A DNA stretch of 64,000 nt, taken from the NCBI GenBank assembly GCA_965238075.1, contig OZ250173.1:683145-747144 (forward strand), given 5' to 3'. The stretch comes from Candidatus Entotheonellaceae bacterium. GTDB taxonomy: Bacteria; Tectomicrobia; Entotheonellia; Entotheonellales; Entotheonellaceae. The notes beneath the pieces are model-generated. The model did not search any database. It was not told where the DNA came from and worked only from the letters and a program-made list of their open reading frames with translations. The position numbers and the translations under genes were made by a program. How positions within the stretch are numbered: the first letter of the stretch is position 1; each line of letters begins with the position of its first letter. Of this stretch, positions 1 through 15,896 are shown one piece after another.

Positions 1-1
1 T

Positions 2-403
2 CGGCGCGCCATGGGGCGGCATTGGCGCGACCTGAGCGCAGACCAGCGGCAGGAATTCGTCGCCCTGTTCAGCGACCTGCTGGAACGTTCATACGTCGGC
101 AAAATCGAGGGCACCGGGGCCGGCAGTCAGGTCGCCTACCCCAAGGAAACGATTGATGACGAGGGCTTTGCCTCGGTCCTGACCGTGATTACCAATCGCC
201 TGGGGTCACAGGTGGAGGTCGAATACCGCCTGCTGCAGCGCGGCGGCAACACGCCCTGGGTGGTGTACGATATGGTCATCGAAGGCGTCAGCCTGATCAA
301 CAACTACCGCACCCAGTTCAACAACATCATCCATCGAACGTCCTACGACGGCCTCGTCAAACAGCTGCGCCTCAAACAGGAGCAGGAAGAAGCGACGGAT
401 TGA
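2..403 (+). CDS. mlaC: MlaC/Ttg2D-family periplasmic lipid-binding protein, C-terminal part (gene starts upstream of window)
   Basis: Frame is open to the window edge. FVALFSDLLERSYV...WVVYDMVIEGVSLINNYRTQF is the conserved core of toluene-tolerance Ttg2D/MlaC proteins. Confidence 0.7.
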   Translation, partial: RRAMGRHWRDLSADQRQEFVALFSDLLERSYVGKIEGTGAGSQVAYPKETIDDEGFASVLTVITNRLGSQVEVEYRLLQRGGNTPWVVYDMVIEGVSLINNYRTQFNNIIHRTSYDGLVKQLRLKQEQEEATD

Positions 404-408
404 CAAGC

Positions 409-1095
409 ATGACGGCGCCACGATTCAAACCGGCATTCTTTGACTTCCTGCGTGAGTTGAAGGCCAACAACGAGCGGTCGTGGTTCGAGGCCAACAAGGC
501 ACGTTACCACGCTGACGTGCGCGATCCGATGCTCGATTTCATCGCCGCCTTCGCCGAGCCGCTCGCCGACATCAGTCCGCACTTCGTTGCCGACCCGCGA
601 GCCAACGGCGGCTCCCTCTTCAGAATCTACCGCGACACCCGCTTCTCCCCGGACAAAACACCCTACAAGACCAACGCCGGGGCTCATTTCCGCCACGTCG
701 CAGGCAAGGACGCGCACGCCCCCGGCTTCTATCTCCACCTGGAGCCAGACTCGTGTTTTGCCGCCTGCGGCATCTGGCATCCGGACGGTGAGGCATTGGC
801 CAGTATCCGCAATGCCATCGTTGAGAACCCCGCCGACTGGACGCGTATCACCCAGGCGAAAGCCTTCCGCGAAACATTCAAGCTGATGGGTCAGTCCCTG
901 AAGCGCCCACCGCGGGGTTACGACGCCGCCCATCCCTTGATCGACGACTTGAAGCGCAAGGACTTCATCGCGGGAGCGGTGTTCCGCGAAGCCGACGCCA
1001 TCCGACCCGATTTCCTCCAGCGCTTTGCCCAAATCGCGCGGCGCGGCGGCGCGTTCGTCGGCTTCCTGTCGCGGACGGTTGGGGTGCCGTTTTAG
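409..1095 (+). CDS. DUF2461 / TIGR02453-family protein
   Basis: FFDFLRELKANNERSWFEANKARY...FRIYRDTRFSPDKTPYKT is the family signature. The ATG at 409 follows the mlaC stop; an alternative TTG lies at 400. Confidence 0.85.
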   Translation: MTAPRFKPAFFDFLRELKANNERSWFEANKARYHADVRDPMLDFIAAFAEPLADISPHFVADPRANGGSLFRIYRDTRFSPDKTPYKTNAGAHFRHVAGKDAHAPGFYLHLEPDSCFAACGIWHPDGEALASIRNAIVENPADWTRITQAKAFRETFKLMGQSLKRPPRGYDAAHPLIDDLKRKDFIAGAVFREADAIRPDFLQRFAQIARRGGAFVGFLSRTVGVPF

Positions 1096-1157
1096 GGGGG
1101 AGTGCCAGAAAGTGTGGGGCAATTGCAGATCTACGCGGGTGATGGCATAAAGTCCGT

Positions 1158-1715
1158 ATGGCCAGCCTGGAAGAATCCACCAGCCTTGTCCAACTGAAGG
1201 TCCGGCTGCTGGGCATCAGCCCCATGATATGGCGACGGTTGCTTGTACCCGCATCCGTGTCGCTGCGGGAGTTGCACGGCATCTTGCAGGTGAGCATGGG
1301 CTGCGAGGGCATTCACCTCTGCTACTTCGACATTCATGCCGTGCACGACGGCTCCTTCGAGTTGTCTACCCAAAGCCCGGACATTGCCCTTTCCCGGTTC
1401 CAGTATCGCGAGAGTGACCGTTTCGCCTACCTCGACGACATGGGCGACTACTGGGAGCACGAGGTCATCGTGCTCGGCAAGGGACGTGATCGGCACGACG
1501 CGACCGGCCTGTCAATCGCCGAGGCCCAAGCTGAAGCGTTCTGCGCCTCCAGATCCGTCTGCCCCGGTTGTAGACGCCGGTTGTGCCGCAAGGGCAGCCG
1601 CTCCATCCGCTACCGCACGGTCTTCGTGATATCCCGGTCACCAGCCCGCGGTATTACCAAGGTGCCTGCCACGGCCATCGTCCCAAGACCTTCAGCCCCC
1701 TGCACGATGTCCTGA
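1158..1715 (+). CDS. pRiA4b ORF-3-like (PF07929-type) domain protein; the C-terminal tail is probably non-native
   Basis: LVQLKVRLLGISPMIWRRLLVPASVSLRELHGILQVSMGCEG...YLDDMGDYWEHEVIV matches the plasmid pRiA4b ORF-3 / IS-passenger domain. The sequence after ~aa 115 is low-complexity and overlaps the transposase fragment. Confidence 0.55.
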   Translation: MASLEESTSLVQLKVRLLGISPMIWRRLLVPASVSLRELHGILQVSMGCEGIHLCYFDIHAVHDGSFELSTQSPDIALSRFQYRESDRFAYLDDMGDYWEHEVIVLGKGRDRHDATGLSIAEAQAEAFCASRSVCPGCRRRLCRKGSRSIRYRTVFVISRSPARGITKVPATAIVPRPSAPCTMS

Positions 1716-2347
1716 AGGAGCAGGGAAGGCAGGAAAACCAGCCCGTCACCTTCCTGACCGACGGTGGCGATACGCTGAGGACCATGGCGCAATACATGGC
1801 CCCAGCGTCCGAGCACCTGCTGGACTGCTTCCACATCACCATGCGCATCACCGTCATGCGCCAGTATATCAAGGGACTCAGCCATGCAAATCCCGGTGGC
1901 GGGGAAGCCGTGGACCGTCTCCTGCGCCAGATCAAAGGCTACCTGTGGAACGGCAACCTCCATGACGGCCGGCGTGCGATCGAGGGACTTGTCATGGAAT
2001 TGGAAGGCATCGAGACGGACTATGCGGGCATTAAGGCGCAGCGAAAAGCTGCTGGCGAGTTCGATACCTACATCCGCAACAACGCGGGCATGATCCCCAA
2101 TTACGCCGAGCGGAGACGCTGCGGTGAGCGGGTCTCCACCGGGTTTGTGGAGAGTGCCATCAACACGGTTGTCGGCAAACGGTTTGACAAGCGTCAGCAG
2201 ATGCGTTGCTCGAAAGCCGGCGAGCATCTCATGCTGCAGGCCCGGACGCGAACCCTTGACGGCATGCTGCGGGGGAAATTCGAGCAGTGGTACCCAGGAC
2301 TGAAGGCCGGAGACAGGGCAGCTGAAGCTGAACCATGCGCTGTCTGA
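1583..2347 (+). pseudogene. ISKra4-family DDE transposase, C-terminal fragment (5'-truncated)
   Basis: FLTDGGDTL...LLDCFHITMRI...YIRNNAGMIPNYAERRRCGERVSTGFVESAINTVVGKRFDKRQQMRCSKAGEHLMLQARTRTLDG is the C-terminal half of ISKra4-type transposases. The N-terminal half is absent and I identified no inverted repeats. Confidence 0.6.
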
Positions 2348-2394
2348 TTGCCCCACAGTTTTGGTACTCCCGCTTGAACGGGGGCCATGAGGGA

Positions 2395-2562
2395 TTCCCA
2401 TTCCGCGACTGTCCGCTGTTGCATCTCCCTGATCCTCCCAAGCCCCCCGGTTCAACGTCAGATGACGCCGCCGCTGGTGTCCTTGATCAGACCTTGCCTC
2501 TATAATCCACGGCCTCTAATTCGTACGATCAACACAACCACGACAGTGTGAAGGAGCTGAGC
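2395..2562 (+). repeat. Duplicated leader/promoter unit, copy 0 (upstream of paralog 1)
   Basis: ttcccattccgcgactgtccgctgttgcatctccctgatcctccc...ggtgtccttgatcagacctt.cc.ctataat...gtgaaggag.tgagcATG recurs nearly unchanged upstream of all three paralogs. Confidence 0.85.
2501..2506 (+). promoter_or_regulatory. Candidate -10 box (TATAAT) of paralog 1
   Basis: Perfect TATAAT ~57 nt upstream of the ATG, conserved in all three units. There is no convincing -35, and the RBS GAAGGAG lies 6-7 nt before the ATG. Confidence 0.3.
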
Positions 2563-3477
2563 ATGACACGACTCATGAAGGCCCTGGTATTGACGGTGCT
2601 GTGCGGTGGTCTCGTCCTCAAGGCGGCCCTGCCAGCTACGGCGCAAACCCCGAGCCAGCTGCAAGCCCAGATTAACGCGCTGCAAGCCCAGAATAATACG
2701 CTGCAAGCCGATATTACGGCGCTACAGTCCAAGATTGCTACCCTGCAAAGCCTGATTAACGGCGTGGCAGCGGGCATTCCCGACTGCATGACCACGGCGT
2801 CGGGAGCGGGGTCGGTCGACGATGTCGTCTTTACAGGCTGCAACGTGCATGTGCAAAACGGCCAAGGAGGCACCGATATCAGCAATGGCGTCGGCAATCT
2901 GATCATTGGCTACAATGAGACTGGTGGCTCCCTCGCCCGCAGCGGCTCGCATAATGTGGTGATTGGTCCTGAGCACAGCTATTCGGGTTATGGCGGTTTG
3001 GTGGCGGGCTTTGACAACACGGTGAGCGGGGCGTTTGCCAGCGTCAGCGGCGGTAACGGCAACACGGCCAGCGGCGATTATGCCAGCGTCAGCGGCGGCG
3101 CTTTTAGTGAGGCCAGCGGCTTTGCTGCCAGCATCAGCGGCGGTTGGGACAACGAGGCCAGCGGCGATTATGCCAGCGTCAGCGGCGGTAGCACCAACAA
3201 GGCCAGCGCCCCCTATGCCAGCGTCAGCGGCGGCAAAAACAATGAGGCCAGCGGCGAGTATACCAGCGTCAGCGGCGGTGGCAGCAACACGGCCAGCGGC
3301 TCTCGGGCCAGCGTCAGCGGCGGTAAGGACAACGAGGCCAGAGGCTCTCGGTCCAGCGTCAGCGGCGGTAACGGCAACAGGGCCAGCGGCATTGCTGCCA
3401 GCGTCAGCGGCGGCAGTTATCGGAGGGTTACCGGGATGTATCACTGGAAGGCCGGTGGGCTCTTCCAGGCCCATTAA
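2563..3477 (+). CDS. Secreted repeat protein, paralog 1 (signal peptide, Q/L/A coiled coil, one Cys-containing head module, 15-residue ASVSGGxxNxASGxx repeats)
   Basis: MTRLMKALVLTVLCGGLVLKAALPATAQ is a signal peptide with an AxA site. QLQAQINALQAQNNTLQADITALQSKIATLQ gives heptads. The head is PDCMTTASGAGSVDDVVFTGCNVHVQNGQG...GNLIIGYNE...GSHNVVIGPEHSYSGYGGLVAG. About 9 x 45-bp coding repeats (gccagcgtcagcggcgg...) follow. The C-terminus is YHWKAGGLFQAH. Confidence 0.8.
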   Translation: MTRLMKALVLTVLCGGLVLKAALPATAQTPSQLQAQINALQAQNNTLQADITALQSKIATLQSLINGVAAGIPDCMTTASGAGSVDDVVFTGCNVHVQNGQGGTDISNGVGNLIIGYNETGGSLARSGSHNVVIGPEHSYSGYGGLVAGFDNTVSGAFASVSGGNGNTASGDYASVSGGAFSEASGFAASISGGWDNEASGDYASVSGGSTNKASAPYASVSGGKNNEASGEYTSVSGGGSNTASGSRASVSGGKDNEARGSRSSVSGGNGNRASGIAASVSGGSYRRVTGMYHWKAGGLFQAH

Positions 3478-3987
3478 CATGGGCCGGCGGGGGTTTTCGG
3501 CGCCTGCAGGGCCCCCGTGCGCGGCGCCGGGCCAAGCGTTTCCCGCCGGACTCCCCAACGATGCCCTGCTTGAGGCGGCAGCGCCGAGCGGCTGTACCGG
3601 CACACCCCCGTCCCTGCAGCCGGCTCCGGGTGCGCTCAGAGAAACCCATTCGGTAGCGACCCCACCCGCTCGTGCAGGCGGCTTCCGAGAGGCCCACGGG
3701 GGCTAGGCTTCACGCCGCTCGCTCCACCCCTCACGAGCCGCCTGAGACCCTGGGCGGATGAGTTAGGAATCCCTACGCGGCGGCGCCGAAGGAGCTTTCG
3801 ATTGGCGCTCGCCGTCGTCTTTCCATTCCGCGACTATCCGCTGTTGCATCTCCCTGATCCTCCCAAACCTCCCGGTTCCATGTCCGATGGTAACGCCGCT
3901 GGTGTCCTTGATCAGACCTTGCCCCTATAATCCATGGCCTCCCATTCGTATGACCAACACAGACACCACAGCGTGAAGGAGTTGAGC
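3478..3987 (+). repeat. Duplicated inter-paralog unit 1 (3' flank plus leader/promoter)
   Basis: Aligns by eye along almost its whole length with 5817-6457. Its two ends also align with 7610-7835 and 2395-2562. Confidence 0.85.
3926..3931 (+). promoter_or_regulatory. Candidate -10 box (TATAAT) of paralog 2
   Basis: Same conserved context as 2501-2506. Confidence 0.3.
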
Positions 3988-5816
3988 ATGACACGACTCA
4001 TGAAGACCCTGATCTTGACGGTGGTTTGCGGTAGCCTCGCCGCCCTGCCGGCGACGGCACAGACCCCGAGCGAGTTGCAAGACCAGATTGACGCGCTACA
4101 AGCCCAGATTACCGCCCTGCAAAACGCATTCCCGGACTGCATGACCACGGCGTCGGGAGCGGGCTCGGTCGACGATGTCATCTTTACGGGCTGCAACGTG
4201 CACGTGCAAAACGGGCAGGGAGAAACCGATAGCAGCAACGGCGTGGGCAATTTGATCATTGGCTACAATGAGGATGATGTCCTCGTTGGCTCCGGCGCTC
4301 CTGCCCGCGGCGGCTCGCATAATATGGTGATTGGCCCTCGGCACAGCTATTCGAGTTATGGCGGTTTGGTGGCGGGCTTTAACAACACGGTGAGCGGGCC
4401 GCATGCCAGCGTCAGCGGCGGTGGGTACACGAGGCCAGCGGCTGGGTCGCCAGCGTCAGCGGCGGTAGCACCAACAAGGCCAGCGAATGGCATGCCAGCG
4501 TCAGCGGCGGTTATGGAAACGAAGCCAGCGGCGCTTATGCCAGCGTCAGCGGCGGTCAGTACAATGAGGCCAGCGGCGATTATGCCAGCGTCATCGGCGG
4601 CAAAAACAATGAGGCCAGCGGCGAGACTGCCAGCGGCGGCGGCAGCAACACGGCCAGCGGCTCTCGGGCCAGTGTCGGCAGCGGTCAATACAATGAGGCC
4701 AGCGGCACTTTTGCCAGCGTCGGCGGCGGTGGCAGCAACACGGCCAGCGGCCATCGGGCCAGGGTCAGTGGCGATACGCTCAACGCGAGCAACATTGCGA
4801 CCAACGCCAGCAACGTTGCCACCAACACCAGCAATGTTGCGACCAATACGGGCAGCATTGCCACCAACGCGAGCAACATTACGACCAACACGGGCAACAT
4901 TACGGCCAATACGGGCACTATTGCCACCAACGCGAGCGACATTGCCACCAACGCGAGCGACATTGCCACCAACACGGGCAACATTACGACCAACACGAGC
5001 GACATTGCCACCAACACGAGCGACATTGCCACCAACACGAGCAACATTGCCACCAACACGAGCAACATTGCTACCAACACGAGCGACATTGCCACCAACA
5101 CGAGCGACATTGCGGATTCATTTGTGCTTCCGGCCTGTATCAATACCGTTGCTGTTTCGGGGCAAGGCGTCGATGATGTGGTCTTTAGCGGCTGCAACGT
5201 GCATGTGCAAAACGGCAGTGGAAGCACCAACAACAGCAATGGCGTCGGCAATCTGATTATTGGCTACAATGAGGATGACGTCCTCATTGGCTCCAATCAT
5301 CCCACCTACGGCGACAATGACCGCGGCGGTTCGCATAATGTGGTGATCGGTCCTGAGCACAGCTATTCGAGTTACGGTGGTTTGGTAGCGGGCTTTTCCA
5401 ACACGGTGAGCGAGAAGTATGCCAGCGTCAGCGGCGGCCATAACAACACGGCCAGCGGGGATTGGGCCAGCGTCAGCGGCGGCCATAACAACACGGCCAA
5501 CGGCAATTCTGCCAGCGTCAGCGGTGGTTTCACCAACACGGCCAGCGGCGCTGCTGCCAGCGTCAGCGGCGGTCATACCAATGAGGCCAGCGGCGATTTT
5601 GCCAGCGTCAACGGCGGCAGAGACAACGAGGCCAGCGACACTGCTGCCAGCGTCAACGGCGGTTATGGCAACGATGCCAGCGAGCAGTATGCCAGCATCA
5701 ACGGCGGCTTATACAACGAGGCCAGCGGCCTTTATGCCAGCGTTAGCGGCGGCTATAACCGGACGGCTTCCGGGCAGTACGACTGGAGGGCCGGTGGGCT
5801 CTTCGAGGACGATTAA
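3988..5816 (+). pseudogene. Secreted repeat protein, paralog 2 (two head modules plus heptad stalk), interrupted by a 1-nt frameshift near 4429-4431
   Basis: The N-terminus MTRLMKTLILTVVCGSLAALPATAQ... is in frame 1 up to ...ASVSGGGY. Expected tac-aac-gag-gcc-agc-ggc reads tac-ac-gag-gcc-agc-ggc. The ASVSGG repeat frame then continues without stops in frame 3 through the heptad block and a second head (PACINTVAVSGQGVDDVVFSGCNVHVQNGSG...) to the stop at 5816. The length is 3n-1, consistent with one missing base. Confidence 0.7.
4782..5117 (+). repeat. 16 x 21-bp in-frame tandem repeat encoding heptads N(A/T)(S/G)(N/D)I(A/T)T (register IATNTSD)
   Basis: aacattgccaccaacacgagc-type units were read directly. 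The block occurs only in paralog 2. The out-of-frame ORF 3934..5256 reads it as TRATLPP repeats. Confidence 0.9.
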
Positions 5817-6457
5817 CGCGGGCCAGCGGGGGGCTTCCGGCGCCTGTAGGGCCCCATGCGCGGCGGCGGGGCAAGCGATTCCCGCCGGCCTCTCTAACGA
5901 TGCCTTGCTTGAGGCGGCAGAGCCGAGCCGGCTGCAGCGGCACACCCCCGTCCCCTGCAGCCGGCTCCGGGTGCGCTCGGAGAAGCCCATGCAGTGACGA
6001 CTCCGCCCGCTCGAGCAGGCGGCTTCCGAGAGGCCCGCGGGGCTGGGCTTCACGCCGCTCGCTTCACCCCTCACGAGCCGCCTGAGACCTTGGACGGATG
6101 AGTTAGGAAGCCCTACGCGATGACGCCGAAGGAGCTTTCGATTGGCGCTCGACGAGAAGCATGACGGCGAGGTCACTGGGCGTCCACCCACGCCCCGCTC
6201 GGCGATAGGGCATCCGGGCGCTGCCGCGGCATGAGCCATTCCATTGTCTGCAACTTCCGGCGGCGGGTGCGGCGTTTCTTGCCGTCGTCTTCCCATTCCG
6301 CGACTGTCCACTGTTGCATCTCCCTGATCCTCCCAAACCCCCCGGTTCAACGTCAGATGGTGACGCCGCTGGTGTCCTTGATCAGACCTTACCTCTATAA
6401 TGCACGGCCTCCCATTCATATGACCAACACAAACACGACAGTGTGAAGGAGTTGAGC
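5817..6457 (+). repeat. Duplicated inter-paralog unit 2 (3' flank plus leader/promoter, with a ~130-nt insertion relative to unit 1)
   Basis: Collinear with 3478-3987 except for extra sequence at about 6150-6285. Confidence 0.85.
6396..6401 (+). promoter_or_regulatory. Candidate -10 box (TATAAT) of paralog 3
   Basis: Same conserved context as 2501-2506. Confidence 0.3.
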
Positions 6458-7609
6458 ATGACCCGACTCATGAAGACCCTGGTATTGACGATGTTGTGCG
6501 GTGGTCTCGCCGCCCTGCCAGCGACGGCGCAGCCCCCGGGCGGCCCGTTGCAGGCCCAGATTAACGCGTTGCAAGCTCAGATGGCCGCCCTACAAGCCCA
6601 GATTGCCGCCCTGCAAAACGCCATCCCGGACTGCATGACCACGGCTTCGGGAGCGGGCTCGGTCGACGATGTCATCTTTATGGGCTGCAACGTGCATGTG
6701 CAAAACGGCCAGGGAAGCACCGCCAGCAGCAACAGCGTCGGCAATCTGATCATTGGCTACAATGAGAGTACTGGCTCCCCCGCCCGCAGCGGCTCGCATA
6801 ATGTGGTGATTGGTCCTCATCACAGCTATTCGAGTTATGGCGGTTTGGTGGCGGGCTACAACAATATAGTGAGCGGGGCGTATGCCAGCGTCAGTGGCGG
6901 CAGAGACAACACGGCCAGCGACTTTTCTGCCAGCGTCGGCGGTGGCAGAGGCAATAAGGCCAGCGGCTGGTATGCCAGTGTCAGCGGCGGTCAGTACAAT
7001 ACGGCCAGCGGCTATTCTGCCAGCGTCATCGGCGGCAAAAACAATGAGGCCAGCGGCGATCATGCCAGCGTCAGCGGCGGCGGCAGCAACACGGCCAGCG
7101 GCTCTCGGGCCAGCATCGGCGGCGGTCAGTACAATGAGGCGAGCGGCACTTTTGCCAGGGTCAGCGGCGGTCACACCAACACAGCCATCGGCCATCGTGC
7201 CATTTCACCTGGGCTTCCGGCCTGTATGGATACCGTTGTTGTTGCGGGGCAGGGCGTCGATGATGTGGTCTTTAGCGGCTGCAACGTGCACGTGCAAAAC
7301 GGCCAGGGAAACACTGATAGCAGCAATGGCGCCGGCAATCTGATCATTGGCTACAATGAGAGTAACAGTGGTGGCTCCCCTGACCGCGATGGCTCGCATA
7401 ATGTGGTGATTGGTTCGCTGCACAGCTATTCGAGTTATGGCGGTTTGGTGGCGGGCTACAACAATACGGTGAGCGGGGCGTATGCCAGCGTCACCGGCGG
7501 TTTCAACAACGAGGCCAGCGGCGATTATGCCAGCGTCAGCGGCGGCCTTAACCGGACGGCTTCCGGGTCTCACAACTGGCGGGCCGGTGGGCTCTCCCAG
7601 TCCGATTAA
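6458..7609 (+). CDS. Secreted repeat protein, paralog 3 (two head modules, no heptad stalk)
   Basis: MTRLMKTLVLTMLCGGLAALPATAQ signal peptide and LQAQINALQAQMAALQAQIAALQ coiled coil. Head 1 is PDCMTTASGAGSVDDVIFMGCNVHVQNGQG and head 2 is PACMDTVVVAGQGVDDVVFSGCNVHVQNGQG. ASVSGG-type 15-mers are present. The C-terminus is HNWRAGGLSQSD. Confidence 0.8.
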   Translation: MTRLMKTLVLTMLCGGLAALPATAQPPGGPLQAQINALQAQMAALQAQIAALQNAIPDCMTTASGAGSVDDVIFMGCNVHVQNGQGSTASSNSVGNLIIGYNESTGSPARSGSHNVVIGPHHSYSSYGGLVAGYNNIVSGAYASVSGGRDNTASDFSASVGGGRGNKASGWYASVSGGQYNTASGYSASVIGGKNNEASGDHASVSGGGSNTASGSRASIGGGQYNEASGTFARVSGGHTNTAIGHRAISPGLPACMDTVVVAGQGVDDVVFSGCNVHVQNGQGNTDSSNGAGNLIIGYNESNSGGSPDRDGSHNVVIGSLHSYSSYGGLVAGYNNTVSGAYASVTGGFNNEASGDYASVSGGLNRTASGSHNWRAGGLSQSD

Positions 7610-7835
7610 CGTGGGCAAGCGGGGGGCTTCCGGGCGCCTGCTTGGCCCCGTGCGCGGCACCGGGCCAAGCGGTTCCCGCCGGTCTCCCCAACGATACCCT
7701 GCTTGAGGCGGCAGCGCCGAGCGGCTGCAGCGGCACACCCTCGTCCCTGCAGCCGGCTGCGGGTGCGGTGTTTCTTACCGTCGTCTTCCCATTCCGCGAC
7801 TATCCGCTGTTGCATCTCCTTGAGCCTTCCGACCC
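7610..7835 (+). repeat. Partial fourth copy of the inter-paralog unit (3' flank joined directly to the leader start, then diverges)
   Basis: Matches the first ~150 nt of the 3' flank and the ttcccattccgcgactatccgctgttgcatctcc segment. It has no TATAAT and no following paralog. Confidence 0.75.
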
Positions 7836-7983
7836 ACCCGATTCTATGAGGACTTCTAAAGAGTCGCCTAAGCTGGAGGCTAGGAACTTGGCTCGCCTTG
7901 CGCAACCCTCTAGGCGGAGGCGATGACGGCGCGCCTCTCGTACGGACCGGCACGGGGGTCACCCACGGCTCGCGGGCAACGCC

Positions 7984-8580
7984 TCAGAAGGGAAGCGACA
8001 GTCGCGCCAAAACCCCTAGATCGACCGGACCCGTTTGGGCCTCCCGCCTTATTGTCTCCAATGCCAACAAAATGCCAACAACAATGGCAGTGCCTGTCGC
8101 GAGCTCGTCGGCAGGGTCCAAGCGGTGCCCAGGGCCAACTCCCGACCCCGCCCGTCCCAGCGCAACCGGCTGCACGGCGGCAGCAGACCCGGTAAACCCA
8201 GCGCCTGCAGGCCACCTCACTCTCCATCCGGCACTGGGAGCCCATCCCCATCGCCTACATCCCCGCCGGGCGCATGACGGTATCCGCGTTGTCCCACAGC
8301 GTCATGCGACCACCGCCGTCCTGGTCCAGCGAGGACGTCACCGACGCCCTGAACCCGCGCTGCTTCTCACCCGGGTCCCAGCTCGCCTGCACGCCCACTC
8401 CCCATTCCCGGTAGTTGCTCTCATGTGCACCACCAGCACCCGGCCGTGCAGCGCCACGTCTAGTCCACTGTTCGCATCCAGGTACCCAGACGGAAACCGG
8501 GTCTCCACCCCAGCGCCCCCGTCGAAACGCCCGCCGGCCTCCGCACGCGCAGGGATGACCGCGACTTGTGTCAGCCTTTC
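7984..8580 (-). pseudogene. Decayed autotransporter-like outer-membrane beta-barrel C-terminal domain (at least 2 frameshifts, no passenger region)
   Basis: Protein-like pieces lie in three frames: VETRFPSGYLDANSGLDVALHGR; YREWGVGVQASWDPGEKQRGFRASVTSSLDQDGGGRMTLWDNADTV; LATGTAIVVGILLALETIRREAQTGPVDLGVLARLSLPF-stop. The last piece ends in Phe and resembles the L.LE..RRE...G..LR....F/W ending of such barrels as I recall them. Confidence 0.3.
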
Positions 8581-8581
8581 C

Positions 8582-9445
8582 CTAGCGCAGATACGAATCC
8601 TGCCAGCCGGAATAGGCATCCTGCCGGAGCGCCGTCGCCAGCACGTCGCCCGCGGCGACCGGGGTTTTAAGATCGGCGGGGGCGCCGCCGGCCTTGAGGT
8701 GCTTGAGCACGTCGTACACGGCTTGCGCGGCGGCGTAGAACGGGGCGTGGCCTTGCAGGGCGATGCGCACGCGGCGGGGGTTCAGGAAAGGCAGGTCGGA
8801 CCACAGCGCCGCCGGGCTGCCGCCCAGCATTAGCGGCAGGGACGTGGCGGCGTGAATGGCCTCGATTTCCGCGCGTTCGCGGGCGCCGACGATGAAAAAG
8901 GCGTCGACGCCAGTGGCCTGATAGGCTTGCAAGCGGCGGACGGCTTCGTCGATGCCGCCGTGACGCAGGGCGCTGGTGCGGCCGATGATGACCAGCGACG
9001 GATCCTGGCGCGCCGCCACCGCCGCCCGCAGCTTACCAAGCATCTCGGGGATGCTGATCAGCCCCTCCCCCTCGCCGCCAAACGCGGTCGGTAGCAAGGT
9101 GTCCTCGATGGTCAGGGCTGCCACCCCGGCCGTTTCCAACTCCTCGACTGTACGCATGACGTTCAGGGCGTTTCCGTAGCCGTGATCGGCGTCGACCATC
9201 AGGCTGAGCGAGCTGGCGCGCGTGATGCGGCGGATTTGCTCGGCGAACTCGGTCAGGGTGAGCACAACGAGGTCCGGCGCCCCCAGCACCGTGGCCGAGG
9301 CGATGGAGCCCGCCAGCATGCCCACGTCGTAGCCGAGCGATTCGGCCAGACGGGCCGACATGGGATCGAATACCGAAGCCGGGTAGACACAGGCGTCCCC
9401 CGCCAATACCCGCCGATAACGTGCGCGGCGTTCGGACAGCAACAT
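8582..9445 (-). CDS. Isocitrate lyase/PEP mutase superfamily enzyme (oxaloacetate decarboxylase / methylisocitrate-lyase-like)
   Basis: VFDPMSARLAESLGYDVGMLAGS...LMVDADHGYGNALNVMRTVEELETAGVAALTIED... is typical of the ICL/PEPM fold. Confidence 0.85.
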   Translation of the reverse strand: MLLSERRARYRRVLAGDACVYPASVFDPMSARLAESLGYDVGMLAGSIASATVLGAPDLVVLTLTEFAEQIRRITRASSLSLMVDADHGYGNALNVMRTVEELETAGVAALTIEDTLLPTAFGGEGEGLISIPEMLGKLRAAVAARQDPSLVIIGRTSALRHGGIDEAVRRLQAYQATGVDAFFIVGARERAEIEAIHAATSLPLMLGGSPAALWSDLPFLNPRRVRIALQGHAPFYAAAQAVYDVLKHLKAGGAPADLKTPVAAGDVLATALRQDAYSGWQDSYLR

Positions 9446-9466
9446 GGATGGTTTCCTTTCCGGCCG

Positions 9467-9730
9467 CTAGCTTTGGGCCTGCTTCAGTACCTGTTTCGCC
9501 TGTTCTTCCGTCAGGCGGCTCATCTTGGTGGTCAATCGCTCCAACTCTTCCGGCTCGACCTCGGCGTCCAGCCAGGCATCCAGCACCGACTTGCGGATGC
9601 GCCAGAGTCCGTCGGTCTGCTCCCCGGCAACCTCCCCCGATTCGAGCATTTCGTAGATCGCCTCAAGCTTCAACCCGGCATAATCGGCGGCTTGCCAGGG
9701 GGCCAGAAATGCTTCCCGTGATACGCGCAT
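9467..9730 (-). CDS. Excisionase/MerR-type helix-turn-helix DNA-binding protein
   Basis: MRVSREAFLAPWQAADYAGLKLEAIYEMLESGEVAGEQTDGLWRIRKSVLDAWLD fits the HTH_17-type pattern. The start was moved to the internal ATG at 9730, because the longer ORF overlaps the rlmD-like 3' end. Confidence 0.55.
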   Translation of the reverse strand: MRVSREAFLAPWQAADYAGLKLEAIYEMLESGEVAGEQTDGLWRIRKSVLDAWLDAEVEPEELERLTTKMSRLTEEQAKQVLKQAQS

Positions 9731-9810
9731 GCGGTATTCCTTATGAGGTTGTGGGTATGATCCGACGCCGCAACGCAGCCGCTGCGACGCGGCGGGATTG
9801 TAGCACAGCG

Positions 9811-11232
9811 TCACGCCTCGTTCGGCCCGGGCGGTGCGGTGTGGCTGAGGGTGGCCAGGCATTCAACGTGGTAGGTCTGCGGAAACATGTCCAGCGGCTG
9901 CACGCTCTCGGTACGGTAGCCGAGGCCGGCCAGCAAGCGCAGGTCGCGGGCGAGCGTCGGGGGGCTGCACGAGACGTAGGCGAGCCGCGGAACGCGCATC
10001 TTGGCGAGGGCTTCGAGAGCTTGCGGTCGGCAGCCGGCGCGCGGCGGGTCAAGCACGGCGACGCGGGCGCGGATGCCTTGGGCCAGATACCGGTACAGAA
10101 TGCGCTCCACCTTGCCGGTGCGAAATTCGCAATTGGCGATGCCAAGCGTGGCCGCCTGCCGGGCGGCGAGAAGCGTTGCTTGGCGGTTGATCTCGACGGC
10201 GTGTACCACCGCACAGTGCGGCGCCAGGGTCAACGCGATAGAGCCGCCGCCGCTGTAGAGGTCGAGGACGATGTCATCAGGCTGCAGTCGCGCGGCGGTG
10301 CGCACCAAGCCATATAACCGTTCGGTCTGCGCGCTGTTGACCTGGAAAAAGGCTTCCGGTTCGATATGAAACCGTAGGTCGCCGATGCGTTCGTGAATGA
10401 CGGCGCTACCGGCAAGGCGGGTTGTGATGCCGTCGAACACGGCCGGCGTCGTTGTCGCTTTGCGGTGCATCAGTAAGCCGGCAGCCAGGTCGCGCAGGCT
10501 TTCCCAAAGTTGGTGCTGCACCTGCGCCGGTATCTCACGTCGCACGATAACCGTTACCAGCACCTCCCCAGTGCGCTGGCCGACCTGCACCTGGACTTGA
10601 TGCAACACACGCCGCAACGCCGGCTCCCGACCCGCCAAACCGCGCACCCGCGCCATCACCGCGTCGATTCGTGCGTCGCTGATGCGGCACTGCGGCACGT
10701 CGAGCACGGCAGATTTGCCGCGTTCGATCAGTCCGAGGGCGTTGCTGGCCGCGTCGAAATGGTAAAGGGCCTTGTTGCGGTACCCAAACGGTTGCGGACT
10801 CGCCAACGTCGGCAAAACGGGAACTTCGGGCAACTTGCCAATGCGCGTCAGGCAATCGCGCACCTGCTGGGTCTTGTTGTCCAGCTGATCGTCGTACCCG
10901 AGATGCTGCAGGTGGCAGCCGCCACAGCGTTCGTATAGGGGACACGGCGCCGGCACCCGCAGCGGCGACGCCTTCCGCAGTGCCAGAAGTTCCGCAAAGG
11001 CGTGGCGCTTGCGCCGCTCGGTGAGGCGAACGTCAACCACGTCGCCCGGCAGGGTGCGCGGCACGAACACGGCGAGCCCGTCGAGGTGTCCAATCCCTTG
11101 TCCGCCGTGCGCCAAGCGGGTAATCTCCAGGGTGCCCTCGATTGGCTCAGCAGGCGGCAGGTCAGTCGTCGTGCGTGATCGTTGGCGGCGGCGCGGCATG
11201 ACAGACCTCAATGAAGGAAGGATGATCGGCAA
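9811..11232 (-). CDS. rlmD: 23S rRNA (uracil-C5)-methyltransferase, RumA/RlmD family (TRAM plus Fe-S plus SAM MTase)
   Basis: TRAM-like LEITRLAHGGQGIGHLDGLAVFVPRTLPGDVVDV, Cys cluster CPLYERCGGCHLQH, and SAM motif VLDLYSGGGSIAL. The exact start is uncertain. Confidence 0.85.
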   Translation of the reverse strand: MPIILPSLRSVMPRRRQRSRTTTDLPPAEPIEGTLEITRLAHGGQGIGHLDGLAVFVPRTLPGDVVDVRLTERRKRHAFAELLALRKASPLRVPAPCPLYERCGGCHLQHLGYDDQLDNKTQQVRDCLTRIGKLPEVPVLPTLASPQPFGYRNKALYHFDAASNALGLIERGKSAVLDVPQCRISDARIDAVMARVRGLAGREPALRRVLHQVQVQVGQRTGEVLVTVIVRREIPAQVQHQLWESLRDLAAGLLMHRKATTTPAVFDGITTRLAGSAVIHERIGDLRFHIEPEAFFQVNSAQTERLYGLVRTAARLQPDDIVLDLYSGGGSIALTLAPHCAVVHAVEINRQATLLAARQAATLGIANCEFRTGKVERILYRYLAQGIRARVAVLDPPRAGCRPQALEALAKMRVPRLAYVSCSPPTLARDLRLLAGLGYRTESVQPLDMFPQTYHVECLATLSHTAPPGPNEA

Positions 11233-11891
11233 TGTGGCCAGCGGTTCTCACCGTGTCGACGTTTGCCATTGCAATGGCGCACGTCGAAACCATGATCGTT
11301 GTCTACCTGCGGCGCCTGTATTACCCGGAGGGCTTCAGCTTTCCGCTGGTCATCATCGACACGCCGACCCTGCTACTGGAACTCGAACGCGAAGCCGCCA
11401 CCCTCGTCATGCTGGCCGCCTACGGCTTCGCCGCGGGGCGAACCAAAGCGGGCAAACTGGCCAATTTCATCATCGCGTTCGGCGTCTGGGACATCTTCTA
11501 CTACGTGTGGCTTAAGGTGGTGCTCAACTGGCCGGCCTCGCTGCTCACCTGGGACGTGCTCTTCCTCATCCCGGTGCCGTGGGCGGGGCCGGTCATCGCC
11601 CCGATCAGCGTCGCCTGCACCATGATCGGCATGGGGCTGGTGCTGCTGCATCTGGAACAACGCGGCGCCGTGCCAGCAGCGGGGAAGCGCGTCTGGACAG
11701 CCCAGATGGCCGCGTGTCTCATCATCATCGCCTCATTTACGCTCGACGTGCTGCCGCGACTGCCGGACCACGGCGCCCTGCTGAGCGAATGGATTCCCAC
11801 GACTTATCGCTGGTGGATGCTGGCGCTCGGTCAGGCGTTGGCCATTGCGACGTTTGCGGCGTGGGCGCGACGGGCGTATACGACGCTGTAG
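11232..11891 (+). CDS. Integral membrane protein, function unknown
   Basis: About 6 hydrophobic segments and no recognised family. Confidence 0.55.
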   Translation: MWPAVLTVSTFAIAMAHVETMIVVYLRRLYYPEGFSFPLVIIDTPTLLLELEREAATLVMLAAYGFAAGRTKAGKLANFIIAFGVWDIFYYVWLKVVLNWPASLLTWDVLFLIPVPWAGPVIAPISVACTMIGMGLVLLHLEQRGAVPAAGKRVWTAQMAACLIIIASFTLDVLPRLPDHGALLSEWIPTTYRWWMLALGQALAIATFAAWARRAYTTL

Positions 11892-11899
11892 GTTGACGC

Positions 11900-12012
11900 C
11901 GCCAAGGACGAGGGGCGCCCACGAGGGGCGCCCCTACGACGGTGGATGCTGGCGCTCGGCCAGGCGTTGAATGAAGGCGGCCTGTAGGGGCGGGCCTGGT
12001 GCCCGCCCTGCG
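11900..12012. repeat. GC-rich hairpin elements (aggggcgcccacgaggggcgcccct; aggggcgggcctggtgcccgccct) flanked by a 29-bp duplication of the upstream gene's 3' end
   Basis: The palindromic stems were read directly. ggtggatgctggcgctcgg(t/c)caggcgttg occurs at 11822-11850 and at 11941-11969. Confidence 0.7.

Positions 12013-13889: not shown

Positions 13890-15896
<2,007 letters not shown>

Follow-up and report, generated by a model that had tools for sequence, protein, structure and literature searches.

What kind of protein is encoded by genes that combine modules known from the heads and stalks of trimeric autotransporter adhesins (TAAs) with an N-terminal signal peptide, but carry no outer-membrane anchor, and why do near-identical strains hold them in different numbers? 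This question is raised by a tandem array at positions 2395-7844 (+ strand) of the window, that is, the whole 64,000-nucleotide stretch of DNA from a Candidatus Entotheonellaceae bacterium that was analysed here. The array comprises three repeat units plus part of a fourth, and each of the three complete units holds one gene of the same family, here called paralogs 1, 2 and 3 (P1, P2 and P3). The explanation that we favour, with moderate confidence, is that of a strain-variable chromosomal tandem array of Sec-exported, probably trimeric, surface or secreted fibres that act in adhesion or recognition and are reshuffled by recombination.

Modular build of the array proteins

The three genes are co-oriented and share, as had been described in a first-pass annotation of this stretch, a signal peptide, a coiled coil, a Cys-containing cap, 45-bp repeats that encode 15 residues each, and a W(K/R)AGGL end. 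All three N-termini read MTRLMK(A/T)L(V/I)LT... and lead to a predicted AxA cleavage site (between ATA and Q, or similar). A lipoprotein attached through the conserved Cys14 of the signal peptide is unlikely, since residues -3 to -1 (T/A-V/M-L/V) are unlike a lipobox and the AxA site, with its Q, follows.

P1 (2563-3477, +) is an intact open reading frame (ORF) of 304 amino acids (aa), in which the signal peptide (residues 1-27) and the coiled coil (residues ~30-69) precede one cap (nt 2779-3042), ~8-9 beta-roll repeats of 15 residues (3013-3413) and the C-terminal end WKAGGLFQAH. The in-frame 5' part of P2 (3988-4428, +) encodes the signal peptide, a short coiled coil, a first cap (2a, 4132-~4400) and the first repeat. 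Beyond a frameshift site (4429-4430, +), to which we return below, the family frame of P2 continues (4431-5816, +) with repeats to 4773, a tract of 16 heptads of the form IxxN(T/A)xx (4781-5113, a 21-nt array), a second cap (2b, 5130-~5400), further repeats (5398-5759) and the end WRAGGLFEDD. P3 (6458-7609, +), an intact ORF of 383 aa, has the signal peptide, the coiled coil and the end WRAGGLSQSD, and between them two heads: cap 3a from 6626 with ~7 repeats (6872-7192), and cap 3b from 7217 with 2 repeats. The five caps (starts at nt 2779, 4132, 5130, 6626 and 7217) are split 1 + 2 + 2, which agrees with the earlier count of one head in P1 and two in each of the others, and carry the motif P(D/A)C...GCNVHVQNG...GNLIIGYNE...GSHNVVIG..HSYS.YGGLVAG. 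The repeats are also delimited by Tandem Repeats Finder, which places 45-bp arrays at 3013-3413, 4403-4773, 5418-5759 and 6881-7170, and a 21-bp array (15.9 copies) at 4781-5113. The last coil is followed by a further 10 residues to the end of the protein.

This architecture is read directly from the sequence. The protein plan that it suggests is a cleavable signal peptide, an N-terminal coiled coil and one or two heads. Each head would have a family-specific cap, which in this clade is probably stapled by two Cys residues, as the start of a left-handed beta-roll whose coils are 15 residues long (ASVSGGxxNxASGxx).

The repeats had been likened to the beta-rolls of YadA heads and phage fibres, and the likeness holds. 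When PDB sequences are searched with phmmer, the UspA1 head is found (3pr7 at E 7e-17, 3ntn at E 8.5e-4) and a grass ice-binding protein is matched weakly (3ult, E 0.025), although the E-values of repeat proteins are inflated by composition. In Pfam, the C-terminal fragment of P2 (5124-5816) matches PF18792 (UspA1_rep) with 33.5 bits against a cut-off of 27, and P3 matches PF21300 (LbR_Ice_bind) with 43.9 bits against a cut-off of 30; below the latter cut-off lie P1 (28.8 bits), the C-terminal fragment of P2 (23.9) and P2 repaired at its frameshift (26.6). The PF21300 match is a label of the fold, not of the function. Hep_Hag, YadA_stalk, ESPR and Peptidase_S74 have no match in the window proteins (Pfam), and NCBIfam and PHROGs return no match for the head, only coiled-coil noise. 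The head module is thus, as first supposed, one without a characterised family, with weak beta-roll matches in Pfam and none in NCBIfam, PHROGs or PDB sequences, where the cap has no solved relative at E<=10.

The AlphaFold2 (AF2) model of P1 consists of a helix (residues 30-69) and a solenoid with two strands per 15-residue coil (pLDDT 85-94 over residues 150-300), and a model of the cap plus three coils, built on a deeper alignment, reaches pLDDT 83.8. The top list of Foldseek against PDB, which is non-significant, contains the ice-binding protein LpIBP (3ult) and the TAA heads 3pr7, 3wp8, 3s6l, 3ntn, 7o23, 2xqh, 9gh4, 2yo1 and 9u93 (from UspA1, AtaA, BoaA, BpaC, EibD, CbpF and SadA), with 3ult at the top for the cap + repeats model. 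Among the predicted viral structures of BFVD, the roll significantly matches proteins of uncultured Caudovirales (E 5.6e-7 to 1.7e-4), among them proteins named Mtd N-terminal domain, LbR_YadA-like, tail fiber and Peptidase_S74.

Two other identities have to be considered on the basis of these matches. The first is a monomeric secreted beta-roll of the LbR_Ice_bind type, one face of which would bind a flat or periodic surface, for instance ice, mineral or polysaccharide. P3 passes the PF21300 cut-off, 36 of 70 diverse relatives match the same model (at E<=1e-4), 3ult heads the Foldseek list for the cap + repeats, and AF2 is confident in the roll of a single chain; LpIBP also shares with the array proteins a flattened left-handed beta-roll of 14-15-residue coils. 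However, LpIBP is a small monomer without coiled coil or cap, P1 and the P2 fragment stay under the PF21300 cut-off, and the UspA1 head is a much stronger sequence match than 3ult. The N-terminal coiled coil, the heptads with Asn at d, and the relatives with a single SLH domain or with collagen repeats (described below) point to oligomers, the taxa of the family show no link to cold habitats, and nothing in the array indicates ice binding. We therefore regard this identity as unlikely.

The second is an origin from phage: tail-fibre genes, or what is left of a prophage, would have been duplicated in the chromosome. The best BFVD folds are viral and the LbR_YadA-like tail fibres of phages have the same kind of roll; in addition, a remnant of an insertion sequence (IS) adjoins the array, and the cap is encoded by four contigs of IMG/VR. 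Yet these four are found among 2.9 million viral contigs, tblastn against 50,697 phage genomes gives no match, every copy carries a Sec signal peptide, phage genes are absent from the surroundings, and the neighbours are conserved housekeeping genes in three strains. Given this conserved chromosomal context, and with no S74 chaperone and no head match in PHROGs, an identity as tail fibre or tailspike was rejected, and a phage origin is highly improbable. Against plasmids, tblastn gives two weak matches, confined to repeats. A diversity-generating retroelement, which the Mtd fold match had suggested, was set aside as well: no copy resembling a template repeat occurs among the repeats, and the variability extends over all coils. 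As a separate observation, the contig IMGVR_UViG_3300032272_000002 (L012, 170 kb, classed as viral) carries at 7196-8684 a pair of neighbouring family genes, both with a signal peptide and the end HDWVSGSLFE(N/D)N, which adjoin a putative ThyX-like gene (read by eye); it may be either a large phage that bears the family or a cellular contig.

The modules of the array proteins lead back to the TAAs (type Vc), and the heptad tract between the two heads of P2 is a further module of this kind. Its 16 heptads (I-A-T-N-T-S-D) have Ile at a, Asn at d and Thr/Ala at e, and in TAA stalks Asn at d, then Thr at e, is by far the commonest polar-core motif (PMC13580157). In P2 the tract would form a polar-core stalk of TAA type that joins the two heads. 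It comprises at least 16 heptads in P2 and in gene 4 of L007, a 10.5-kb contig with six tandem family genes, but one or two in gene 1 of the same contig. In some paralogs (L007 7950-8981 and 9489-10295; L008 3881-4867) the N-terminal coil is lengthened by 11-residue repeats (LQGQIAQINNV...), so that the length of the stalk varies at both places.

With the TAAs (heads of UspA1, YadA, BoaA and BpaC), the array proteins share the 15-residue Gly/Ser/Asn coils, which match those of the UspA1 head, a modular head-stalk-head build, a variable stalk length and, in P2, the IxxNTxx heptads; TAA heads are also the nearest solved folds, although non-significantly. There are also differences. TAAs carry a C-terminal YadA beta-barrel anchor and run from head to stalk to anchor, so that their C-terminus lies at the membrane, whereas the order in the array is signal peptide, coiled coil, head(s); and the array rolls, unlike TAA heads, start with a family-specific cap that has no counterpart by sequence in PDB. 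YadA_anchor (PF03895) is absent from P1, P3, the P2 fragment and repaired P2 (Pfam, E<=1), from 70 diverse relatives and from the precomputed Pfam annotations of 120 homologs. The absence of an anchor, a chaperone and a secretion partner, first noted for the window, extends to those 70 relatives and to the five genomic contexts examined, in which no conserved neighbour or partner gene was found. The array proteins thus resemble the passengers of TAAs without being TAAs, since they lack the anchor and differ in polarity.

The cap family outside the window

How far this combination extends was evaluated with a cap profile built from 28 caps and searched against 1.84 billion representatives. The search returns 6,123 clusters at E<=1e-3, of which 5,164 are found at E<=1e-10, with 1-6 caps per protein and proteins of up to 2,225 aa. 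The motif of the family is V.F.G(C/A/V)N(V/L)H(V/I)..G.G.T....NG.GNLI(I/V)GYNE...GSHN(L/V)(V/I).G..H.YSSYGG(L/F)VAG, followed by SVSGGxxNxASG coils, and the window caps fall within this definition. Family members occur in Desulfobacteraceae, Planctomycetota, Binatia and sponge symbionts; all the names given to them at source are "hypothetical protein", and no paper on a cap + beta-roll family was found in the literature. The family lacks a name, a Pfam model of the cap and a solved structure, which makes it a target for structural work.

The relatives also provide indications of where the proteins reside. The N-terminus is hydrophobic in 212 of the 233 relatives whose sequence begins with Met, and the domains that co-occur with the cap are of extracellular types (TSP3, EGF, SRCR, FG-GAP, collagen and SLH). 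Both residues of the cap Cys pair are present in 68 caps, neither in 199 and one in 9, a both-or-neither pattern that fits a disulfide but is a statistic that ignores phylogeny. Sec signal peptides, the Cys pair and the extracellular-type domains together argue for an extracytoplasmic location.

Four distant relatives have exactly one N-terminal SLH motif ahead of the coiled coil, three relatives contain collagen triple-helix repeats, and one (P0044) has an N-terminal lipobox. In OmpM, three single SLH domains, contributed by three chains, form the wall-binding unit (PMC10628300); a single N-terminal SLH domain followed by a coiled coil, as in the trimers of OmpM/SlpA type, implies trimerisation and N-terminal attachment to the wall in those relatives. 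The likeness is limited to this end of the protein, since OmpM and SlpA have a C-terminal outer-membrane barrel, and the array proteins have a beta-roll head and no SLH domain. From the heptads with Asn at d, the single-SLH relatives and the collagen relatives we infer that the array proteins are probably trimers, and the SLH motif or lipobox at the N-terminus of relatives would place the roll at the distal end. The fibres would accordingly be parallel trimers whose N-terminus faces the cell, opposite in polarity to TAAs and without a beta-barrel anchor.

The head and the Asn-at-d stalk, usually seen as parts of type Vc passengers, occur here in an anchorless family of more than 5,000 clusters. 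Tentatively, the family may represent a widespread and unrecognised class of surface fibres, in which TAA modules are used outside type V secretion, with Sec export, trimerisation through the N-terminal coiled coil, attachment (if any) at the N-terminus, and disulfide-stapled caps, and of which the present sponge-symbiont lineage would have made a cassette-like array with one promoter per unit, a source of strain-specific repertoires through recombination. If this is true, such repertoires could serve interactions with a host or partner cell, or act as phage decoys. The questions raised are how fibres of this kind are exported and retained, and whether the modules predate autotransport.

Variation of the locus between strains

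The array varies strongly between strains. The window and two other loci, L001 and L010, share the gene order MlaC-DUF2461-array-PEP_mutase-RlmD-UvrC-UvrB. L001 belongs to OX639990.1, the 3.6-Mb chromosome of an uncultured Candidatus Entotheonella sp., which has been treated as a sponge-associated Entotheonella taxon (PMC12357920), and L010 is a 187-kb metagenome contig from a short-read assembly. The flanks of the window are 95-97% identical to both; the array is 72-83% identical, mosaic, and does not correspond gene for gene. Its genes encode 304, 609 (frameshifted) and 383 aa in the window, 354, 228 and 445 aa in L001, and 354 and 460 aa in L010. L001 and L010 are 98-99% identical and yet one whole unit apart, where a collapse in the short-read L010 is possible.

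The mosaic is also visible in the comparison with L007. Positions 3036-6151 of the window are colinear with this contig at 91%, and the colinearity stops beyond 6151; within the block, P2 is 96-97% identical to L007 gene 4 and the 3' part of P1 only 78%. P3 matches pieces of different units, and the 5' part of P1 is likewise a mosaic of other units. The rapid, recombination-prone evolution that had been proposed for the family can now be stated as two or three mosaic genes, 72-83% identical, between flanks that are 95-99% identical in related strains. Few loci differ as much between near-identical strains as the array does, with the reservation that differences between assemblies may include assembly error. 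Homologous recombination among units, caps, 45-bp repeats and 21-bp heptads would expand, contract and reshuffle the repertoire.

In gene organisation, the closest documented analogue is the vomp locus of Bartonella quintana, in which four tandem, closely related TAA genes recombine and delete (PMC2695021). Both loci consist of tandem, co-oriented, related genes with internal repeats, in a number and with a content that vary between strains. The Vomps, however, are anchored TAAs of a pathogen, whereas the array proteins are anchorless and belong to a sponge-associated Tectimicrobiota bacterium, and the variation of the array is known from differences between assemblies, not as phase variation in vivo. 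What is new is the combination of known modules and a known strategy (tandem variable adhesin genes) in an anchorless, very large and uncharacterised family with its own cap.

Within the repeats, the variability has a defined position. Over 178 coils of the lineage, the entropy of the 15-mer, in a profile that ignores phylogeny, is 3.1-3.9 bits at positions 7, 8, 14 and 15, 1.75 bits at position 10, 1.34 bits at position 13 and less than 1 bit at the other nine. Adhesion or recognition would take place through these variable turn residues of the roll, and specificity would reside in the four hypervariable positions of each coil plus the number and order of the modules. The ratio dN/dS is 0.53 between P2 and its ortholog, compared with 0.12-0.21 for three flanking genes.

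P2 itself is not the single gene at 3988-5816 that it had been taken for: the family frame breaks at 4428, resumes at 4431 and runs to 5816. One nucleotide is missing: in place of GGGYNEASGW, the reading of the intact orthologs P0001 and L007 gene 4 (611 aa), the window has TACACGAG. The sequence at 4420-4433 is GGT GGG TAC AC GAG, and the missing A (TAC AAC GAG in the intact form) lies outside any homopolymer or simple repeat, for which reason slipped-strand phase variation was rejected as the cause. In its current form the locus encodes 422 aa from the ATG at 3988, ~275 of them out of frame, and a separate fragment without 5' end; the repaired product is 609 aa long. The 5' part (3988-4428) retains 96-97% nucleotide identity to the intact ortholog (L007 5602-7437). 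The deletion may be that of a real pseudogene or an error of the consensus, and P2 would then be a copy inactivated, or mis-sequenced, by the loss of one nucleotide.

This defect leads to another explanation, namely, that the repeats are in decay or have been mis-assembled and that the array serves no function at present. In its favour are the frameshift in the middle gene, another frameshifted copy (at 2x coverage) in L008, a locus that holds five family genes, and the tendency of repeats to collapse, of which L010, one unit short of its 99%-identical counterpart L001, may be an example. On the other hand, P1 and P3 are intact and keep a conserved start codon, ribosome-binding site (RBS) and TATAAT, and dN/dS is below 1. 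Independent assemblies also contain tandem arrays, among them the record of the 3.6-Mb chromosome (contig ptg000630c), and more than 5,000 clusters of the family keep conserved motifs. Decay or mis-assembly as the whole explanation is for these reasons very unlikely.

A number of observations do weigh against exposed adhesive fibres. The middle gene is disrupted, the count that links the cap Cys residues takes no account of phylogeny, and the promoters are recognised by a conserved TATAAT alone, without a -35 element. The N-terminal coiled coil, with Ile at a, Leu at d and one Asn at a, is not specifically trimeric, AF2 folds the monomer by itself, and neither the full P1 model nor the cap model has a significant Foldseek match in PDB. 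A route across the outer membrane is absent, with no anchor, translocator or conserved partner in the window proteins, the 70 relatives or the five contexts. The window encodes MlaC, and MlaD/E and an OEP gene lie next to MlaC in the syntenic L010; with these Mla and OEP genes the organism looks diderm, and the proteins could be periplasmic.

According to this last alternative, the proteins would be periplasmic or envelope-structural trimers (wall-bound spacers or tethers) and not exposed adhesins. The Sec signal peptide is their sole export signal, no domain or partner for translocation across the implied outer membrane was found, and the relatives with an N-terminal SLH domain and coiled coil resemble the periplasmic stalks of OmpM and SlpA. 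Several facts point the other way: exposed proteins, and not envelope scaffolds, typically vary to such an extreme in content and copy number while the flanks stay 95-99% identical; within the roll, the variability is centred on the turn residues; the relatives contain extracellular-type domains (TSP3, EGF, SRCR, collagen, FG-GAP); and the window proteins have neither SLH nor any other wall-binding domain. A periplasmic role is thus a serious rival, though a fairly unlikely one, and surface or secreted fibres, probably with an adhesive function, are the reading that we retain. As such, the array is a candidate symbiosis factor, of host or partner specificity, in an uncultured Entotheonella-like lineage.

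Repeat units, spacers and neighbouring genes

The repetition of the array involves more than its genes, since each of these lies within a repeat unit, complete with a conserved promoter/leader module and a 3' module of its own. The upstream module of unit 1 (2395-2562, +), delimited by alignments and pattern searches, contains a conserved distal block, TATAAT (2501-2506), the leader and GAAGGAG (2550-2556). Spacer 1 (3478-3987, +) is made of a 3' module (3478-~3807) and the upstream module of unit 2 (3808-3987, TATAAT at 3926-3931), and spacer 2 (5817-6457, +) of a 3' module, an extra block of ~130 nt and the upstream module of unit 3 (6278-6457, TATAAT at 6396-6401). In all, the upstream module of ~165 nt occurs three times, each copy with TATAAT and with GAAGGAG 7 nt before the ATG, while ~175 nt of the 3' module are common to the three units and ~330 nt to units 1 and 2.

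The gene-less partial fourth unit that had been reported at the end of the array is indeed present, from 7610 to ~7844 (+). It joins a 3' module (7610-~7752) to the distal part of an upstream module (7753-7844), the TATAAT-proximal half of which is missing. A pattern search locates this fourth distal copy at 7789-7819, and the searches for upstream-module patterns return 4 and 3 copies against 0 expected in shuffles. In L001 the syntenic array stops at the corresponding position of the module, with L001 14635 aligned to window 6362, immediately ahead of the flank. Of 18 units from five loci, which include two other sites of OX639990.1, 16 have a recognisable upstream module and 15 have TATAAT.

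The duplicated flanks, the TATAAT and the GAAGGAG RBS of the first-pass annotation are therefore found three times, but the promoter is incomplete: no acceptable -35 hexamer is present, and a sigma-70 consensus scan passes over the TATAAT sites. Nor is a sigma-54 promoter likely, as the alignment, read by eye, shows no -24 element with GG to go with the conserved upstream TTGCAT. The presence of a module in front of each gene suggests that each unit may be transcribed independently.

The spacers of the window, L001, L002, L007 and L008 fall into two length classes, of ~457-532 nt and ~619-647 nt. They are conserved at least as well as the coding repeats, whichever units, loci or genomes are compared, and no ORF, Rfam family or covarying RNA explains this conservation. 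Rfam has no match in window positions 1-12000 at E<=1. A structured RNA in the 3' module is unsupported: RNAalifold folds GC-rich hairpins after the stop codon, but compensatory change is seen in 2 of 56 pairs and the covariation term is unfavourable. A conserved small ORF was rejected, given that the longest frames vary in strand and phase between units.

On its left, the array is bordered by the IS remnant already mentioned, which had been recognised from the sequence alone and proves to be an insertion of 1,196 bp (1111-2306, +) with the C-terminal part of an ISKra4-family transposase. The insertion is absent from L001 and L010, which are contiguous at 1110/2307 (blastn). It contains an ORF with a PRiA4_ORF3 domain (1158-1715, PF07929) and, in the ORF 1583-2347, the truncated transposase, which matches NF033572 at profile positions 245-421 of 422 with 165 bits, below the cut-off of 205. 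This insertion marks the left edge of the array and is not part of it.

On the right, a window-specific segment of ~700 bp (7845-8544) separates the array from the PEP_mutase-family gene (8582-9445, -). A decayed outer-membrane barrel gene that had been placed there could not be confirmed: the segment is absent from L001 and L010, none of its frames matches a family, and the fetched loci contain no relative of it, though no large-database search was aimed at it. The flanks of the window encode MlaC, DUF2461, the PEP_mutase-family protein, RlmD, UvrC and UvrB. In L010, a small HTH_17-family gene (14484-14747) is located between the PEP_mutase-family gene and RlmD, and it is matched in the window by a minus-strand ORF at ~9467-9862.

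The repeat genes also call for some caution in annotation, since GC-rich repeats of this type give rise to shadow ORFs, frameshifted gene calls and collapse in short-read assemblies. The 45-bp and 21-bp repeats yield long stop-free frames (peptides PASAAV..., AADAG... and TRATLPP...) that are not genes; in the window these are 2722-3603 (-), 3035-3706 (+), 4356-4754 (-), 5419-5997 (+), 5709-6419 (-) and 6590-7195 (-). Gene starts may be affected as well. The protein P0010 (L009 10001-10924) begins 30 codons upstream of the conserved MTRLMK (MADVVSRCF...KELSMTRLMK), probably as the result of a gene call over-extended across the RBS region, and the ORF list of the window offers comparable upstream GTG starts at 2548 and 6443.

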